Source of the DNA: Candidatus Dormiibacterota bacterium
Lineage (GTDB): Archaea > Thermoproteota > Bathyarchaeia > 40CM-2-53-6
Length of the DNA: 64,000 nucleotides
NCBI GenBank assembly: GCA_035637535.1
Contig: DASPWZ010000009.1
Span: forward strand, 1,082-65,081
Reading direction: 5' to 3'
Shown: in pieces, positions 2,986 through 57,906 of the stretch
Numbering within the stretch: the first letter of the stretch is position 1
Layout of the letters: each line of letters opens with the position of its first letter
Notes under the pieces: model-generated
The model's database searches: none
What the model was told of the DNA's origin: nothing
Seen by the model: the letters and a program-made list of their open reading frames with translations, nothing else
Translations under genes and position numbers: made by a program

Positions 2986-3993
2986 ATGTCCATTTATGAT
3001 CTGGAGGAGGATAGGCTCGTAGCGGAGATAACGGGTAGAGGTGCCCGAAGGTTACTCATTCAACTGCCCGACGGACTCAAGAGCGAAGGACCCCGACTCG
3101 CCAGCCTCGTCCGAGAGAAAACTGGTGCGGAGGTGTTTGTTTCAGCGTCCTCCGCTTGGGGCGCTTGCGATCTATCCCTCGACGCGGCCGTGCGTCTGAA
3201 AGCTGACCTTCTGGTTCATTACGGTCATAACGAATTTCTGCGCGACGGGTCCAACGGCATACCTGTCGTCTATATTCCCGCCAAGAGCAGACACGAAATA
3301 ATCCCAGTCGTGGATAAGGCGCTACCGCTCCTACAGGGACCACGCATAGGATTGGCCACGGTCGTCCAACACCTTCACAATCTTCCAGACACTGTCAAGT
3401 TCCTAGAAGAGAAAGGGTTCAAGGTCCAGCTTCCTGGACGCGGACCCTGGTCGCACGAAACGGGCCAGGTTCTAGGCTGCGACTATTTCGGACTCAAACG
3501 GATCGAGCCTGAAGTAGACTCGTTCCTGATAGTAGGAAGCTACTTCCATGGCCTAGGCGCAGCACTATCACTAGAAAAGCCGACAATCCTCGCGGACCCC
3601 TACGATAAGACTGTTCAATCGCTCGACCAGGATCGGGCAAGAATCATACGCCAACGATACGCAATGGTCGAGAAAGCTCGACAAGCCAACAATTTCGGAA
3701 TAATAATCTCCACCAAACCCGGCCAGTCCAACCCAACGATAGCACTAAGCATCCAACGACAACTTGAGGAGAACGGCAAGAAAGCAGTCCTCCTCTACGC
3801 CGACGAAATAAGACCCGAAAAACTGTTAGACTTCACAGATGTCGACGCTTTTGTCGACACCGCATGTCCAAGACTCGCTCTAGATGATCCCGAGAGATTT
3901 CCGAAACCCATCGTGACGCGGGACGAGATCATGGTCGTAATGGGCGCGTGGACCTGGGAACAGCTTCTGGAGCGCGGCCTGGTCCGCCTCTAA
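2986..3993 (+). CDS. dph2: 2-(3-amino-3-carboxypropyl)histidine synthase (diphthamide biosynthesis, Dph2)
   Basis: 335-aa ORF. The N-terminus YDLEEDRLVAEI...RLLIQLPDGLK and the conserved cysteine-containing blocks (WGACD, VLGCD, DTACPR) are typical of archaeal Dph2. Confidence 0.85.
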   Translation: MSIYDLEEDRLVAEITGRGARRLLIQLPDGLKSEGPRLASLVREKTGAEVFVSASSAWGACDLSLDAAVRLKADLLVHYGHNEFLRDGSNGIPVVYIPAKSRHEIIPVVDKALPLLQGPRIGLATVVQHLHNLPDTVKFLEEKGFKVQLPGRGPWSHETGQVLGCDYFGLKRIEPEVDSFLIVGSYFHGLGAALSLEKPTILADPYDKTVQSLDQDRARIIRQRYAMVEKARQANNFGIIISTKPGQSNPTIALSIQRQLEENGKKAVLLYADEIRPEKLLDFTDVDAFVDTACPRLALDDPERFPKPIVTRDEIMVVMGAWTWEQLLERGLVRL

Positions 3994-10238: not shown

Positions 10239-10841
10239 TTGAAAGGCAGAAACTATCGCTCTCCCTCAGGTCAGGCTTACACCCGTTTGAAGTACATTCA
10301 TGGATCCCCGACCCCGAAAGTCTCGAAGTTCAACATGGGGGATCTCTCGACTCATTTTGCCCGAAGGGTCCATCTTGTGTCCAGAGAGAATGTCCAGATT
10401 CGCCATAACGCCCTCGAGTCGGCGCGTGTTTCTGCTAACAAGGTTCTCTTCGACAAGTACGGCGAGACAGGTTACAGGTTGCAGTTGTGCGTTTATCCTC
10501 ACATTATTCTCAGAGAGAACAAGATGATAGCCACTGCGGGGGCTGACCGTCTCCAAGAAGGAATGAGGCGGGCCTTCGGAAAACCCACCGGAAGGGCTGC
10601 GCGGGTCCATGATGGGCAGTCGATACTCATCGTCTACGTTCCAGAAGATGGTGTAGATACTGCTCGAAAAGCGTTAGACACCGCGTCGACGAAATTCCCG
10701 ATGAGGAGCCGCATAACCGTTGAAGAGATTCCTGTGGAAGAGCAAGCTCAAGTTCCCATTCAAGCTCCGGTCCCTCCAGAAGAAGTCGAGCCTACCGAGG
10801 CCGCGGAAGAAGTTACTCCGATTGTAACCGTGGGAGCCTAG
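10239..10841 (+). CDS. rpl10e: 50S ribosomal protein L10e (uL16)
   Basis: 200-aa ORF with a TTG start. YTRLKYIHGSPTPKVSKFNMGD, ENKMIATAGADRLQEGMRRAFGKP matches L10e. It has an acidic/Pro-rich C-terminal tail. Confidence 0.85.
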   Translation: MKGRNYRSPSGQAYTRLKYIHGSPTPKVSKFNMGDLSTHFARRVHLVSRENVQIRHNALESARVSANKVLFDKYGETGYRLQLCVYPHIILRENKMIATAGADRLQEGMRRAFGKPTGRAARVHDGQSILIVYVPEDGVDTARKALDTASTKFPMRSRITVEEIPVEEQAQVPIQAPVPPEEVEPTEAAEEVTPIVTVGA

Positions 10842-27648: not shown

Positions 27649-28011
27649 TTGGAGATGAAACTGGCTTCTTCCGTGGTGCACAACTGGGGCGAGCTGGATC
27701 TGCCTCTTAGAATATCAGCAGCAATGGGTCTGCTGTCCGGAGCGAGTCTGCCCATAGTCTACGAGTTCATTCTGCCCTCACTCGGCGGTGCACCGTCCAT
27801 CATTGGACTAGCCCTCACCATAATCTACCCGCCCCTAGCACTCTTCGTAACTCCGTCGATAGCAGGGTTCGTCGGCACGATTGCGTTGCTTCTCCGTCCT
27901 ATGAGCGTTGAACAGCGTGGAATCGTAGGCTTCATAGTCTTCATCGCTTCGGTCCCAAGCGTCTTCTTCATGCTTCTCTACGCCGTGTATCTCTGGGGAC
28001 CGCACACATAG
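27649..28011 (+). CDS. small membrane protein, unknown function
   Basis: 120-aa ORF with three to four hydrophobic helices. Confidence 0.5.
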   Translation: MEMKLASSVVHNWGELDLPLRISAAMGLLSGASLPIVYEFILPSLGGAPSIIGLALTIIYPPLALFVTPSIAGFVGTIALLLRPMSVEQRGIVGFIVFIASVPSVFFMLLYAVYLWGPHT

Positions 28012-28144
28012 GCTGGGGGCTTCGATCAGTTCCGATTGTACCCTTCACTCCAGAAGTGGATTAATGCCACAGAACTGTGGGAAGAAGAACGATTTTTCCA
28101 GCATGAACGTCTTCCCCAAAGAGCAGCTTCTGGTATCTTGAGGA

Positions 28145-28307
28145 TTAAGCGCAATTAGGTCCGTTGGGTTCTACAGCCCAGAGATTGCTGCCGCAGATGC
28201 AGGCGCGGCTGACGGCGACGAGTGCATCGGTCGGCTGGATCAGGCGGGCGTTGGACACGTTCTCGATGCAACCGTCCTTTGGCGCCGTATCGGATGCTCG
28301 CGCGCAT
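28145..28307 (-). pseudogene. N-terminal remnant of a zinc-dependent (MDR) alcohol dehydrogenase, frameshifted and truncated
   Basis: IENVSNARLIQPTDALVAVSRACICGSNLW matches the MDR-ADH N-terminus (EPTDAIVRV..AAICGSDLH pattern). The only ATG (28305-28307) is in a different frame. The ORF stops after about 50 codons. Confidence 0.45.
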
Positions 28308-28340
28308 CTCGGACTACTTCGGGCTTCCGGCGGGCGTGGG

Positions 28341-29177
28341 CTAGTCGAGAGAGAGCGACGTGGACAGTTGGTGGTAGGCGTCGATCTGCGCCTTGAGATC
28401 GGCGATCTTCTGCTCGGCGAGGGCGATGGCATCGGTGCCGGCGATGAAGCGGCGCGGCGGCGACTGCTCGGCAGCGACCCTGACGAGCGCTCGCGCGAGC
28501 TTGGCTGGATCGCCGGGTTGCTGCCCGTTCTGCGCCTCCCACCACTTGAGTTGCTCCGCTCTGCGGTCGGCGTAGTCCTCAATGGAGCGGTCGGCAAATG
28601 TCATCGACTCCTTCGTGAGGAGCTTGGTGCGGAAGAACCCCGGGTTGACGATGGTGGTGTGGATGCCGAACGGCTCGACTTCGGGCCGCAGCGACTCCAT
28701 CCAGCCCTCGAGACCGAACTTCGACGCGGCATAGGCGGAACAGAACTCGAAGCCGACGAGGCCCGCGCCCGACGAGATCGAGATGATGTGGCCCGAGCGC
28801 TGCTTGCGCATGATGGGCAGGACCGCGCGGGTGACATTCATCGGGCCGAGGAGGCTCGTCGCCAGCTGCCGCTCGACCTGCTCCGGCGTCAGCTCCTCGA
28901 AGTAGCCCGCATCAAAGGTACCGGCGTTGTTGACCAGCACGTCGATGCGACCGAACCGGTCGACCGCCTCCCGCACCGCGGCCTCAGCATCGGCGCGGCT
29001 AGTAACGTCCAGCTTAACGACCCGCAGGTCATCCAAATCACCCACGGCCTTAGCCACGGCATCAGGGTCCCGACCGGTGCCCACCACCGCGTGGCCGGCG
29101 GCCAGAGCGGCTTTGACGAAATCGACGCCCATGCCACGGCCGGCTCCAGTAATAAACCAGATCTTCCTGTTAGTCAT
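28341..29177 (-). CDS. short-chain dehydrogenase/reductase (classical SDR), very GC-rich
   Basis: The likely start is MTNRKIWFITGAGRGMG (TGxxxGxG). NNAG, the catalytic S...YxxxK (YAASK) and PG follow. The gene sits in a stretch where all six frames carry long ORFs, which is a signature of high GC. Confidence 0.85.
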   Translation of the reverse strand: MTNRKIWFITGAGRGMGVDFVKAALAAGHAVVGTGRDPDAVAKAVGDLDDLRVVKLDVTSRADAEAAVREAVDRFGRIDVLVNNAGTFDAGYFEELTPEQVERQLATSLLGPMNVTRAVLPIMRKQRSGHIISISSGAGLVGFEFCSAYAASKFGLEGWMESLRPEVEPFGIHTTIVNPGFFRTKLLTKESMTFADRSIEDYADRRAEQLKWWEAQNGQQPGDPAKLARALVRVAAEQSPPRRFIAGTDAIALAEQKIADLKAQIDAYHQLSTSLSLD

Positions 29178-29349
29178 GGTATCATTGACACTCAACCCAA
29201 TCTCCATCATTTGACCAAGGCTCAATCAACTCTAGCATATATCTACACAAACGTGGTCCAACCAGCCAGGTAATTTTAGCGAATTCGCAAGGATTCCGAA
29301 CCGGGAAAATGGATTAGCTTAAAATTTCAAGTGAATCCGGAATGCATCA

Positions 29350-30807: not shown

Positions 30808-31056
30808 TCACATTGTGTATCCCCGTTTCTTGTATAACTTCTCCGAGTTGTTGACGACGTCGGATTGATGGACGTTCTCAGCCCAGTCCCGTGGTTTGAC
30901 TTCTTCGATGGCTACCGAAACTGATTCTTCTGCCCGAGAACCGTCAGGATTTCTTGGATGTATTCCGTCGTTTTGGAGTTTGAATGCGATTTCTTGTTCC
31001 ATACGGAATGGGTTGGCGCGTAGTCGTTCGCGCCAGTCGCTCCGCTGACCAGACAT
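30808..31056 (-). CDS. hypothetical protein
   Basis: 82-aa ORF, co-directional with and just downstream of the HEPN-motif gene. Confidence 0.4.
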   Translation of the reverse strand: MSGQRSDWRERLRANPFRMEQEIAFKLQNDGIHPRNPDGSRAEESVSVAIEEVKPRDWAENVHQSDVVNNSEKLYKKRGYTM

Positions 31057-31117: not shown

Positions 31118-32077
31118 CTAGTTCTTGCCTTTGACCGATGAACCATAGCTGTCTATGGTCTTCATGACTTCGTCTATGCTAGCCAACCCTTCTTCAACGT
31201 CGCCTTTTCCAATATGGGCGGGGTCATGTACCGCCATGTTCCGAAGTTTCACAAGTCTCTTCATTCGTTCACTAATGCTTGGGTAAATCTCGCTCAATCC
31301 CTTGGCCAGCGATAAGGGATCCGCAGTAGGCTGAGCGATTTTCCTCGCCCATAGGAGAATGCTAACTTTCTCTTCGAGATTACGGAAACGATCAAGGAAC
31401 TCCCGTAACTTAGGGGTCAATCTCTCGTGGTCAGGCATATGCCATCGAATAAGGGCATCAGGCTTCAATATGTTGAACTGAAATGAAACTTCAACCTTCA
31501 GGTCACCTCCAGGATCCAACGCAATTCTTAGCCTAGACCCTATTGTATCGCCCGGCATTGCAATCCACTCAGCAAAGATGGGATCGAGAATCATAGCCTG
31601 GTCAAATGGAGAGAACTTGTTGGACCAATGTAGCGACAGTCGGGTGAGTGTATCTAATGTTAGAATATCGAACTTGGGGCCGAACTCGATATTGTGCCCA
31701 CTATCCTTGCACCACTTGAAGAATTCGGCATAATTTTCGACTGGGAGAAAGAGGACTTGCGGCCTAAAGCCTCTAAGCCTAAGCGTGTTCGCTGCAGTGA
31801 AAATCACTTCAAACTGCTCCCCCTTCATGGGTTCGTATTTTTCTCCGCAGGACGTTAACTTGGAAATCAAGTACCCCTCTTCACGAATTGCGAGTGAACG
31901 TCCGGCCTCGTAGAAGACCATGTCAGCCGATACGTTGGGGTCTGAAAACCATTCTCTTTTAGTAGTGAGTTGGAGTGCTAGCTTTTCGAATTTCTTGTCC
32001 CAATCAACATTCTCTATGTACCATCGAGTTCCAACCGTATCAGGAATTATGCTTGCTTTTTCGTAGGACGATCTCAA
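31118..32077 (-). CDS. hypothetical protein with C-terminal HEPN-like Rx4H motif
   Basis: 319-aa ORF. The helical C-terminal region carries KLRNMAVHD (R279-N-x3-H284; 31226-31243), which fits the HEPN RNase motif Rx4-6H. The N-terminal ~220 aa are unrecognisable. Confidence 0.55.
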   Translation of the reverse strand: MRSSYEKASIIPDTVGTRWYIENVDWDKKFEKLALQLTTKREWFSDPNVSADMVFYEAGRSLAIREEGYLISKLTSCGEKYEPMKGEQFEVIFTAANTLRLRGFRPQVLFLPVENYAEFFKWCKDSGHNIEFGPKFDILTLDTLTRLSLHWSNKFSPFDQAMILDPIFAEWIAMPGDTIGSRLRIALDPGGDLKVEVSFQFNILKPDALIRWHMPDHERLTPKLREFLDRFRNLEEKVSILLWARKIAQPTADPLSLAKGLSEIYPSISERMKRLVKLRNMAVHDPAHIGKGDVEEGLASIDEVMKTIDSYGSSVKGKN

Positions 32078-32122
32078 CGTGGACTCAAATTGGGCCCTCC
32101 TATCCTCGATGAGTAAACCCAG

Positions 32123-32551
32123 CTAGACTCGCCTCCTTGCTCCCGCTAAGGCATCGACGAACGATGGTATTTGCCGGAAACTCGCTGCTGGTCTTCTATG
32201 ATCAAACCTGAACCATTGAAGGTCCATATAATCTAAGATATGTGGAATTGGCGCATCATCTGCAACAAAGGGCAGAACAGGTACCTGCTTTCTGTAAATA
32301 TAGCTCATTTCATCTCGCCATCTCCTCGATCTAAAGGTCCACCTAGTTACGATCATGATTGCCACGTCAGAATTACGTATCTCTTCAATAATTTCCGGGA
32401 GTTCGGCAAGACCCGGAGTTATTCTCCTAGCGACGAAACAACGATACCGTCTTATGCTCTCGAGAAACTTGTTGAGTTCAAGGGCTATCGAGACACCGGC
32501 GGATCCTCCCCATCCCATGAATACATTGAGGATGACCACGCCTCTTGGCAA
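32123..32551 (-). CDS. TIR-like domain protein
   Basis: 142-aa ORF with a TTG start. The pattern VVILNVFMGWGG...IEEIRNSDVAIMIVT...SRRWRDEMSYI...VPVLPF follows the TIR/DUF1863 layout (betaA VFISY-like, betaC IVVlS-like, W..E helix, iPv strand). Confidence 0.5.
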   Translation of the reverse strand: MPRGVVILNVFMGWGGSAGVSIALELNKFLESIRRYRCFVARRITPGLAELPEIIEEIRNSDVAIMIVTRWTFRSRRWRDEMSYIYRKQVPVLPFVADDAPIPHILDYMDLQWFRFDHRRPAASFRQIPSFVDALAGARRRV

Positions 32552-32634
32552 CGAAACGCATGATGTTCAAAGAATATTAGAGCGTTCTTCATCTATTCTC
32601 GTCGCCGGCGTCGGCGTGAAGTCGCGAGCTTGCA

Positions 32635-32899: not shown

Positions 32900-33178
32900 C
32901 TACGTTGGGTCGTAGAGGAACCGGTCGATCTCAGACGACTTAATCTTCTGTTTGAACCTGACAGGTTTGAGCCGGAATAGAGGATCATTCTTCAAATCCA
33001 TCCTCGACGTACTCCAATCTAGGAGTGCCCGACGAGCAGCCTCCTTGATGGTCAAGCCCTTCTTCTTCGCCACCTCGGAGAGGAGATCATACTCACGTTC
33101 TTCCAGCTCCGTCTGGACTACCTTCTTAGTCGCCAAGACCCCTTTGATCATCCGGACTGTGATCGCCGGCTGTTCCAT
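32900..33178 (-). CDS. ribbon-helix-helix antitoxin-like protein (orphan)
   Basis: 92-aa ORF. LEEREYDLLSEVAKKKGLTIKEAARRALLDW is an RHH pattern. No PIN or other toxin ORF is recognisable downstream. Confidence 0.55.
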   Translation of the reverse strand: MEQPAITVRMIKGVLATKKVVQTELEEREYDLLSEVAKKKGLTIKEAARRALLDWSTSRMDLKNDPLFRLKPVRFKQKIKSSEIDRFLYDPT

Positions 33179-56311: not shown

Positions 56312-56992
56312 ATGATGACATTGAAGAGTCGCATGGTCGAATTCAAAACAGAAGATGGCTTTGGAAAGGGATACCTGGCATCGCCCGAAAACCCGCGCAG
56401 CGGAGTTCTCGTTCTGCACGCCTGGTGGGGACTCAATGATTTCTTCAAGGGCTTTGCTAACAGGCTAGCCTCTCAGGGATTTCTCGCACTAGCGCCGGAC
56501 CTTCATGACGGTGCTGTAGCAACGTCCGTAGAGGGGGCGAAGGAGCTCCGGTCAAGAATCGCTGACGAGAGAATAAAGCAAATAGTTCTAGCAGGAACCG
56601 ACTACCTACGAGCAGATCCATCAATATCCGGACACAAAATCGGCGTCGTGGGCTTCTCCATGGGGGCAGCATGGTCTCTATTATTGAGCACGTTGAAGCC
56701 CGAAACGGTTGGAGCAGTTGTTGTCTTCTACGGAAGCTACACTATGGATTTCTCAAAAGCTGAAGCATCCTTTCTGGGTCATTTCTCACCCGAGGATGAA
56801 TGGGAACCGCTTGGGGACGTGCGGGCTACAGAGGAGAAGATTCGCGGGGCCGGAAGGGAGGTTTCGTTTCACTTCTATCCTGGAACGAAACACTGGTTCG
56901 TCGAAGAGAATCGGCCCGTAGAGTACAACCGGGCCGCCTCAGACCTGGCTTGGAAGAGGACGCTAGAGTTCCTCGACACAAAACTACGATAA
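56312..56992 (+). CDS. dienelactone hydrolase family protein
   Basis: 226-aa ORF. VLVLHAWWGLNDF, the nucleophile-elbow-like VVGFSMGA and a C-terminal H (GTKHWF) are present. Confidence 0.8.
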   Translation: MMTLKSRMVEFKTEDGFGKGYLASPENPRSGVLVLHAWWGLNDFFKGFANRLASQGFLALAPDLHDGAVATSVEGAKELRSRIADERIKQIVLAGTDYLRADPSISGHKIGVVGFSMGAAWSLLLSTLKPETVGAVVVFYGSYTMDFSKAEASFLGHFSPEDEWEPLGDVRATEEKIRGAGREVSFHFYPGTKHWFVEENRPVEYNRAASDLAWKRTLEFLDTKLR

Positions 56993-57057
56993 TCGTTGGA
57001 TCGGCTCAGTCGCAAGCACCGACCTATTATACGCAATGTACAATTCGCCCAGGTCAG

Positions 57058-57906
57058 ATGAGCCCTGATTACCGAGTAATCATCGGCGACAGTCGTCGAA
57101 TGAGCGAAGTCACCGACGAATCGGTCCACCTTACCGTGACCTCGCCCCCATATCCTATGGTATCGATCTGGGACGACTCTTTCGCGGAAGCTTCAGCTCC
57201 ATCCTACGATGATATGCACGAGTATCTCAACGAGGCTTGGCGTGAAATCAGAAGAGCGCTTGTTCCTGGCGGCATTGTCTGCATCAACATTGGAGATGCG
57301 ACCCGGACCTCGAATGGAATATTCCACCTCTACCCCAACCATTCCAGAACAATCGAGAACTTTGAGAAGCTCGGCTTCGTAACTCTGCCCTACGTGCTCT
57401 GGAAGAAGCCCACCAACCGGCCCCATTACAAGGGCAAAGGAGCGTTCTTGGGATCAGGATTCCTTCCACCAAACGCGTACGTAACGCTCGACATGGAATA
57501 CGTGCTCATCTTCCGCAAAGGCTCACCACGTAGCTTCCCGCCAAAAGACCCCAGACGGTATGACAGCAAGTTCACCAAGAAAGAACGGGACGAATGGTTC
57601 TCACAAGTCTGGAAGGTCCCTGGTGCGAGACAGGATATTGAAGGTCTTGAGCGGCGAGTAGCAGCTTTTCCGGAAGAGATTCCTAAGAGGTTGATTAAGA
57701 TGTTCTCGATTCTAGGAGACACGGTCCTCGACCCGTTCCTTGGGTCCGGGACAACACTCAAGGTTGCCATGGACCTCGACCGCAAGTTCGTGGGCTACGA
57801 AAAACTCCCACAAATGGCTGAGATCATCAAACGGAGAGTCGGGTCCAACCGAAGACTAGTAGAGTTTCTTGAGCAGGGCCGCGTCGTCAACGAACTCGTT
57901 GGATAG
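57058..57906 (+). CDS. N4/N6 DNA methyltransferase (N6_N4_Mtase family), apparently orphan
   Basis: ATG at 57058 lies inside a longer ORF. Catalytic motif SPPY (LTVTSPPYP) is near the N-terminus. The C-terminal SAM motif is VLDPFLGSGTT. Confidence 0.8.
   Translation: MSPDYRVIIGDSRRMSEVTDESVHLTVTSPPYPMVSIWDDSFAEASAPSYDDMHEYLNEAWREIRRALVPGGIVCINIGDATRTSNGIFHLYPNHSRTIENFEKLGFVTLPYVLWKKPTNRPHYKGKGAFLGSGFLPPNAYVTLDMEYVLIFRKGSPRSFPPKDPRRYDSKFTKKERDEWFSQVWKVPGARQDIEGLERRVAAFPEEIPKRLIKMFSILGDTVLDPFLGSGTTLKVAMDLDRKFVGYEKLPQMAEIIKRRVGSNRRLVEFLEQGRVVNELVG

Follow-up and report, generated by a model that had tools for sequence, protein, structure and literature searches.

The 64,000-nucleotide (nt) stretch of contig DASPWZ010000009.1 (assembly GCA_035637535.1) analysed here, referred to throughout as the window, carries on its minus strand two co-directional open reading frames (ORFs), one of 142 amino acids (aa; 32551..32123) and one of 319 aa (32077..31118). 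An initial annotation, made by reading the letters without database searches, had described the first product as a TIR-like protein and the second as a protein ending in a HEPN region, and had proposed the pair as a candidate two-gene defence module of an archaeon. Both ORFs were found where that annotation had placed them. We describe here a TIR-domain protein and, translationally coupled to it by the simplest reading of their junction, a protein in which a large N-terminal domain (hereafter X) is confidently predicted to have the fold of HK97-type capsids and encapsulins and is followed by a HEPN domain. We further describe the family of X, its link to TIR proteins and its genomic setting, and weigh the functions that the module may have. 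The features of the locus are collected in Table 1.

Table 1. Positions in the window of the genes, domains and signals of the TIR and X-HEPN locus
Feature	Position	Strand	Remarks
Candidate promoter, TATA-like box TAATATT	32573..32579	-	centre ~25 nt upstream of TIR start; read from the sequence
TIR-domain protein gene	32123..32551	-	TTG start 32551, TAG stop 32123-32125; Pfam TIR_2
Glu81 codon, putative catalytic glutamate of TIR NADase (RWRDEM)	32309..32311	-	alignment
AGGAGG Shine-Dalgarno-like motif	32132..32137	-	within TIR 3' end, 9 nt before X-HEPN first codon
X-HEPN gene, full conserved frame	31118..32122	-	334 aa plus stop; start in ORF list, TTG 32077
First codon of conserved X-HEPN frame, CTG	32120..32122	-	directly after TIR stop
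Domain X, predicted HK97 capsid/encapsulin fold	31427..32122	-	aa ~1-232; AlphaFold2 model, Foldseek
HEPN domain, predicted HepT-like four-helix bundle	31121..31426	-	aa ~233-334; sub-threshold profiles and model
R-N-M-A-V-H, Rx4H motif of HEPN RNases	31226..31243	-	R294..H299 in 334-aa numbering

The TIR gene and its junction with the second gene

The upstream protein matches Pfam TIR_2, of the STIR clan, above threshold (score 37.6 bits, gathering cut-off 28, E=3.5e-9) over profile positions 12-120 of 122, and its homologues carry PF13676, in agreement with its first description as TIR-like. It measures 142 aa from TTG 32551 and 138 aa in the Joint Genome Institute (JGI) gene calls on identical contigs. 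The glutamate initially noted at the W..E position of SRRWRDEMSY is E81, which does not vary among 11 aligned partner TIRs, a number of them just 17-25% identical, and which a weak sequence match to the PDB aligns with the glutamate of WC.DE (SSSWCLDEL) in the plant RPP1 TIR. Outside the TIR domain the partner TIRs share a C-terminal tail, ..L..ARRR[VAI]. The TAATATT box upstream of the gene is a candidate archaeal promoter that would give rise to a leaderless transcript; the string CTCTAATATT is also found upstream of the TIR gene in one related locus (L002) and, judged from the translation, in another (L001).

The 45 nt that had been placed between the two genes proved to be an artefact of ORF calling, as the conserved second frame abuts the TIR stop. 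All 15 codons from the TIR stop to TTG 32077 share the frame of the second protein and encode LGLLIEDRRAQFEST, a segment that reads V[VG]TLI[ED][ST]R..QFEST in relatives and is conserved at the protein level in all of them; in the QFEST codons the differences between lineages are all synonymous. Relatives of the second protein are 334-340 aa long, with their first codon directly after the TIR stop. Because the 15 gap codons are in frame and conserved, we place the beginning of the conserved X-HEPN frame at 32122, right after the TAG at 32123-32125. The length of 319 aa first assigned to the protein therefore holds for the ORF from TTG 32077, whereas the full conserved frame encodes 334 aa. The frame opens with CTG in the window, as it does in five independent soil contigs, whereas relatives have GTG or TTG.

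The Shine-Dalgarno-like AGGAGG at the end of the TIR gene also codes for the conserved ..ARRRV tail of the protein. In all X-HEPN clades a GGAG(G/A)CGA motif is kept 9-12 nt upstream of the X start, despite differing stops and frames. Sister clades keep the tight junction but vary its make-up: in L019-L024 it consists of TAA or TAG, 1 nt and then TTG in the +1 frame, in L006 of TGA, one codon and TTG, in L012 of TAA, 8 nt and ATG, and in L009 of GTGA, with a 4-nt gene overlap. Since these sister clades vary in stop, frame and overlap yet keep the GGAG motif, the junction points to coupled re-initiation, and two polypeptides made by coupled translation would be its simplest reading. The candidate starts in the window lineage are CTG 32122 and TTG 32077, or else the TAG may occasionally be read through.

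Some other junctions have peculiarities of their own. The TIR frame beside a P0009-type X-HEPN gene (L006:4340-4783) is open from stop to stop, with no ATG, GTG or TTG near its N-terminus, and may have a non-canonical start, like the CTG of the window; a second, ThsB-like TIR gene (L006:3733-4128) lies about 650 nt upstream of it. On a GenBank metagenome contig, the TIR gene upstream of X-HEPN (L019:1054-1499) is split by a frameshift, reflecting either a pseudogene or an assembly error.

The capsid-type domain X, its HEPN extension and its family

The N-terminal ~220 aa of the second protein had been described as resembling nothing recognised, and the full protein indeed gave no significant match to Pfam or NCBIfam, including the Pfam encapsulin families. 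The predicted structure told more. An AlphaFold2 model of X-HEPN, built with 72 family sequences, reached a mean predicted local distance difference test score (pLDDT) of 93.8 and a predicted template modelling score (pTM) of 0.77. In the model, X opens with an N-terminal helix and a hairpin, which are followed by a spine helix of 24 residues, the two helices of the A-domain and the P-domain sheet; this order is consistent with the HK97 fold. When X was compared with the PDB using Foldseek, 226 matches were obtained at E<=1e-3, and the best 50 belonged without exception to encapsulins or to capsids of the HK97 type, including those of HK97 itself and of Haloferax tailed virus 1. The best E-value was that for the Mycobacterium tuberculosis encapsulin (5e-8, probability 1.00), and the Pyrococcus furiosus virus-like particle gave a target-normalised template modelling (TM) score of 0.67. 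The same search against the predicted viral structures of BFVD returned 206 matches at E<=1e-3; those with names among the best 50 were all capsid, head or prohead proteins, and the top one belonged to Halogranum tailed virus 1, an archaeal virus (E=9e-10). Two weak signals come from sequence and are thus independent of AlphaFold: the family profile reaches the C-terminus of the Thermotoga maritima encapsulin (E 0.17-1.7), and 2 of 72 relatives match Pfam ENCP4 below its cut-off (E=1.4e-3). On this evidence an HK97 capsid/encapsulin fold is confidently predicted for X.

At threshold, X matches no Pfam encapsulin or capsid family. No match in PHROGs was obtained for 70 of 72 X members, nor for the window protein, and tblastn against 50,697 phage records returned no relative of X. 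Since it has neither a PHROGs match nor a phage relative, X is best described as a deeply diverged cellular HK97-fold family and not as a prophage gene. A prophage capsid remnant was considered and rejected, there being no match to a viral family and the neighbouring genes encoding a NUDIX protein, an F420-type oxidoreductase and a ribbon-helix-helix (RHH) protein. Profile scans of X for the signal-binding domains SLOG, Macro, SAVED and CARF detected none of them.

The assignment of the C-terminal region to HEPN, as initially suggested, is supported by the convergence of several tests. Chance alone would be expected to place an Rx4H motif in a protein this long, and its weight here comes from conservation, fold and profile matches. 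The LRNMAVH motif lies exactly where it was first reported, and alignments of 7-9 sequences, down to 36% identity, show its R, N, V and H to be invariant. Sub-threshold matches to four HEPN families and HepT fall on one and the same helix, among them HEPN_Cthe2314 (score 16.7, cut-off 27.1), RiboL-PSP-HEPN (15.2, cut-off 28.4), DUF4145 and NCBIfam HepT_toxin (16.6, cut-off 60). A family profile run against PDB sequences reached HepN toxins at E ~0.09, with its lvelRNsvvHd aligned to GLRNIAVHD. Modelled separately, the domain forms four helices (pLDDT 87), the motif lying within H50-68, and its best PDB folds are those of HepT (6m6u, 6m6w and 7bxo; TM 0.63-0.68, root-mean-square deviation 2.4-3.2 A, probability 0.94-0.99). 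The corresponding E-values of 0.2-0.6 are not significant, as is to be expected because the domain is small and helical.

Relatives of the second protein are all unnamed metagenome proteins. A search of 5.8 billion proteins yielded four clusters, and an exhaustive HMMER search of 1.84 billion representatives recovered 108 relatives; only four of these matched over their full length and the remainder over residues ~1-215, the region from which domain X was named. Sorted by local hidden Markov models (HMMs), the about 110 representatives of the X family comprise 74 stand-alone X proteins (280 aa or less), 14 TIR-X fusions, 7 X-HEPN proteins, 4 in which X follows four N-terminal transmembrane helices (DUF2254-like), 1 Mrr_cat-X protein and about 9 with other N-terminal extensions. 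DUF4062 takes the place of TIR_2 in 3 of 72 scanned members. An HMM derived from the stand-alone X proteins matches the window protein at 5.7e-54. Likewise, an HMM from stand-alone partner TIRs matches the fused TIRs down to E=2e-17, from which it follows that split and fused forms draw on one TIR subfamily.

Wherever the sequence upstream of an unfused X gene can be read, a TIR gene lies directly in front of it (window, L001-L003, L006-L008, L009, L012, L019-L024, L028 and L030), the calls including a TIR_2 match at E=1e-4 in L009 and a local HMM match at 4e-19 in L028. The pairing is kept from 100% to about 25% identity under purifying selection, and the two genes of the proposed module are co-conserved in every lineage that could be checked. 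Because TIR is directly upstream of X, or fused to it, throughout the inspected loci, TIR plus X is the core of the system. HEPN is an add-on limited to a small clade; X, not HEPN, is the constant partner of TIR. In prokaryotic defence systems, a sensor or regulator is usually recognised by this pattern of one constant domain whose toxic partners (NADase, nuclease, RNase, membrane domain) are exchanged.

Two further features were observed among the relatives. One X-HEPN protein (P0011, L030:4719-6614) has a 300-aa C-terminal extension with one hydrophobic segment and a second weak HEPN match (PF05168, residues 361-405); it neighbours MazE/PIN, RHH/ParE and UPF0175/DUF3368 gene pairs. In three unrelated loci (L009:7157-7555, L028:6579-6953 and L025:7079-7555) the gene of a small membrane protein with hydrophobic helices (124-158 aa) sits just upstream of TIR or TIR-X and may encode a third component of the loci with stand-alone or fused X; the window has no such gene.

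Genomic setting and mobility

The archaeal origin assumed for the module is borne out by the window itself, which encodes the diphthamide-synthesis protein Dph2 (PF01866, E=2e-79) and a lone 200-aa ribosomal protein L10e (genes at 2986-3993 and 10239-10841), together with phosphoenolpyruvate synthase, CoaBC, MerA and other chromosomal genes. Rfam and tRNA scans of the window found nothing. The locus occurs in identical form in at least 20 soil metagenome runs. The patch of lower G+C content seen by eye was confirmed as a modest dip (0.48 over 31-33 kb, about 0.52 for the window).

The gene remnant and orphan antitoxin mentioned in the initial annotation correspond to two ORFs. One, of 82 aa (30808-31056, minus strand), lies directly downstream of X-HEPN, and resembles 4-oxalocrotonate/PptA tautomerases (NCBIfam, E=1e-6) solely in its last 40 residues, which align with their C-terminal half; the ORF probably represents a fusion or what is left of a gene. 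The other, of 92 aa (32900-33178, minus strand), is separated by about 350 nt from the TIR gene, to which it lies upstream, is kept in the identical soil contigs and has no adjacent toxin gene; it gives weak matches only, to RHH antitoxins (DUF6290, E=0.007; RelB, E=0.02; PADLOC PDC-M50A, E=3e-4). Farther away, a gene resembling short-chain dehydrogenases/reductases (28341-29225, minus strand), about 2 kb from the module, stands in a patch of 63.5% G+C (28001-29300) against about 52% for the window, which suggests recent horizontal acquisition. An N6/N4 DNA methyltransferase gene (56312-57906; PF01555, E=6e-42) overlaps a 226-aa ORF; its product may act as an orphan methylase or belong to a restriction-modification system.

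The defence-island context first described for the pair is weak in the window, whose neighbourhood is just weakly island-like. Around the relatives the neighbours vary by lineage and include type I restriction-modification operons, an OLD/TOPRIM ATPase, an M78 peptidase, toxin-antitoxin pairs, a transposase and an integrase. The strongest sign of mobility is a presence/absence polymorphism: both flanks of the cassette in L003 have counterparts of 92-95% identity in L007, where these lie only ~92 nt apart, so that the ~1.66-kb cassette is absent at that site in the related genome. That genome carries a 40%-identical version 4.6 kb from the empty site. L002 and L003 share a site at which the flank is 92% identical and the modules just 76%. 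Such presence/absence and divergence of modules are typical of accessory, fast-turnover defence genes. The insertion (L003:~897-2557, compared with L007:194-287) falls between ...CGTAACC and GAAGGTTTTAATGAC, and neither terminal repeats nor a recombinase gene were seen at this site. SLOG (LDcluster4) and dCTP deaminase genes were considered as partners and rejected, as the window has no homologue of either; the SLOG gene is a conserved flank (~92% nucleotide and ~99% protein identity) that stands beside very different modules.

Proposed function and its alternatives

TIR NADases require ordered oligomers for activity, HEPN RNases work as dimers that form the Rx4H site, and HK97-fold proteins are built to polymerise; assembly of X triggered by infection would thus switch on both effectors. 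We propose, with moderate confidence, that the pair serves an uncultured soil archaeon as a compact and mobile module of two genes against viruses, most likely acting by abortive infection. The proposal brings together the three folds, the catalytic motifs, the coupling of the genes, the obligate TIR-X link, the swapping of effectors and the presence/absence polymorphism described above. Under it, X would be the sensing and assembly module and would oligomerise upon infection, its assembly being nucleated by, or mixed with, a viral major capsid protein, portal or scaffold; alternatively, X may form capsomer-like rings of its own. The assembly would cluster the bound TIR proteins, predicted from the catalytic glutamate to be of the NAD+-cleaving type (NAD, nicotinamide adenine dinucleotide), into the arrays required for NADase activity and would pair the HEPN domains into a composite Rx4H RNase site, and loss of NAD+ and cleavage of RNA would then halt the infected cell. 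In this scheme the role in defence, the activities of the enzymes, what triggers the module and how it is activated are all putative. A narrower version, which we regard as possible and put forward tentatively, is that X is a captured viral capsid protein serving as immune sensor: drawn into procapsid assembly, it would co-polymerise with the viral capsid, portal or scaffold and so switch on the effectors, which in relatives would be the Mrr nuclease or the membrane domains.

Several observations weigh against the antiviral proposal. No PADLOC model matches either window protein, so the assignment to defence leans on domain content and context, and the immediate neighbours (NUDIX, F420-type oxidoreductase, weak RHH protein and tautomerase fragment) provide little of the latter. 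No HEPN profile reaches its curated cut-off, the evidence for this domain being sub-threshold in each single test. Oligomerisation of X and its binding to viral proteins are putative. Expression of full-length X-HEPN is uncertain because its frame opens with CTG, a poor start codon, and no RNA sequencing run with the locus was found among those searched. Finally, scans of cultured-genome, plasmid and virus collections, which had limited sensitivity, did not find the X family: pattern scans of 185,579 GTDB species genomes and scans of IMG/VR, both limited in this way, were negative, as was tblastn against plasmids.

A precedent for assembly-triggered activation of a TIR exists in Swarozyc (KpSwz), in which DUF4062, shown to be a TIR-like NADase, is activated when auxiliary domains assemble side by side on the phage portal, resulting in NAD+ depletion and abortive infection (bioRxiv 10.64898/2026.05.01.722283). 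Like members of the X family, Swarozyc joins an N-terminal TIR-type NADase to a C-terminal auxiliary domain, and the three X members with DUF4062 add to the likeness. However, its auxiliary domain is a winged helix and not an HK97 fold, on which ground identity was rejected, and the window differs further in having TIR_2 instead of DUF4062, TIR as a separate gene and HEPN in addition; Swarozyc is thus an analogy and not a system to which the pair belongs. The TIR-IV system of Escherichia coli likewise consists of a TIR protein and a partner without a recognised domain; both genes are required, and all mutations by which phages escape lie in the major capsid protein (Wang et al. 2024, PMC11350192). 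It could be related to the X module, to which it is likened by description and not by sequence; it is reported mainly in Proteobacteria and Bacillota (PMC11350192), whereas X is found in metagenomes only.

Given the fold of X, an encapsulin-like nanocompartment has to be weighed, in which X would form a closed shell with TIR as cargo and HEPN outside, confining an NAD-processing enzyme with no role in sensing; TIR would dock by its conserved C-terminal tail or be fused to the lumenal N-terminus of the shell. Family 1 encapsulin operons have an enzyme gene upstream of the shell gene and N-terminal enzyme fusions, and both arrangements recur here; encapsulins, among them the archaeal particle of P. 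furiosus, are the top matches in the PDB, the weak ENCP4 and T. maritima matches point the same way, and the shared tail of the partner TIRs would suit a docking signal. We nevertheless consider this compartment unlikely. Four members fuse X to a four-transmembrane-helix domain, the DNA substrate of the Mrr nuclease fused to another could not enter a shell, no Pfam encapsulin family was matched at threshold, and the RRR of the tail overlaps the AGGAGG ribosome-binding motif, so that its conservation may lie at the level of RNA. The partners of X are toxic effectors and membrane domains and not the ferritin-like, peroxidase or desulfurase cargo of encapsulins (families 1-4), and its mobile, variable, island-type setting is atypical of metabolic encapsulins. 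Encapsulins are defined by self-assembly into a closed icosahedral shell (PMC8346489), a property that is putative for X; TIR as a cargo is unreported, and 'TIR' is absent from that census paper. Equally doubtful is a Thoeris-like pair, in which TIR would sense infection and make an ADP-ribose-derived signal and X would be the receptor that turns on the HEPN of the same protein. A small TIR-only protein beside a larger two-domain effector does recall ThsB and ThsA, the TIR parts of the family match the PADLOC ThsB model (E=2e-8), and the second TIR of L006 matches Pfam ThsB_TIR. Yet an effector domain is missing altogether from 74 of the 110 X proteins, and in 14 X is joined to TIR itself, so X is not generally a receptor placed before an effector. 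It contains none of the signal-binding domains sought; the SLOG genes near some loci are the conserved flanks mentioned above and have no counterpart in the window, which also encodes no ThsA-like protein with SIR2, transmembrane-Macro or SLOG; no PADLOC system was matched by the window proteins; and the HK97 fold is not, to our knowledge, a sensor of small ligands.

A selfish addiction or toxin module, or another role outside defence, in which TIR and HEPN would be toxins unconnected with viruses, seems somewhat less probable again. Among toxin-antitoxin systems, HEPN domains of the HepT type are classic toxins, the cassette is mobile and some loci lie among toxin-antitoxin genes; moreover, type VII HepT/MntA shares with X-HEPN the LRNxAVHD motif and the four-helix fold, HepT providing the closest solved structures. 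In the window, however, no adjacent MntA-type nucleotidyltransferase or other antitoxin was found, the TIR gene lying upstream and the tautomerase-fragment ORF downstream, and HEPN is fused to a 230-aa capsid-fold domain and scores below the profile cut-offs. The extreme form of this view, a decaying provirus with a capsid gene that happens to lie beside TIR, is excluded as a remnant by the retention of the TIR pairing to about 25% identity under purifying selection; nor was there a PHROGs match or any virion gene nearby. The least probable of the readings considered is that TAG is decoded or read through in the window clade, giving a single 477-aa TIR-X-HEPN polypeptide. In all four lineages of that clade the two ORFs are in frame with TAG as sole separator, the CTG that follows it in the window is a poor start codon, and natural TIR-X fusions occur elsewhere. 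The in-frame state is automatic at a TAG/NTG junction, however, and does not count as independent evidence. Pyrrolysine or genome-wide recoding of TAG was rejected, since 18 of the 44 large ORFs in the window end with TAG, more than with any other stop, and conserved programmed read-through was judged unlikely, since sister clades keep GGAG while having TAA or TGA as the stop, X in the +1 frame or genes that overlap by 4 nt, as expected of coupled re-initiation.

With TIR and HEPN folds assigned, the two genes co-conserved and neither protein matched by a PADLOC model, the original proposal of a candidate two-gene defence module is supported. PADLOC (2023) and PHROGs contain no model matching X, and neither Pfam-A (2025) nor NCBIfam (2026) contains one that covers it; a full-text search of one literature library found no paper on an HK97-fold domain coupled to TIR or HEPN, or on this pairing, an absence that is not proof. 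TIR and HEPN effectors are familiar. The capsid-fold domain as their constant partner is the new, putatively virus-derived element and is most likely undescribed.

If the module is a defence system, it would represent a new class of sensor or scaffold in prokaryotic immunity that is itself of viral structural origin, would suggest sensing by co-assembly with viral capsid machinery and would add to the uses known for the HK97 fold. For archaea, in which the study of TIR-based systems has been limited to a few, it would provide a rare candidate of this kind. Should X act as a captured capsid protein, this would amount to a new principle of pathogen sensing, self-assembly mimicry, and the HK97 fold, so far put to use in capsids, encapsulins and gene-transfer agents, would have a fourth fate; should it instead form an encapsulin-like shell around TIR, it would add a new cargo class and a new way to cage a toxic NADase. 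Under either reading, the about 110 representatives of the family, with their natural fusions, constitute ready experimental constructs.

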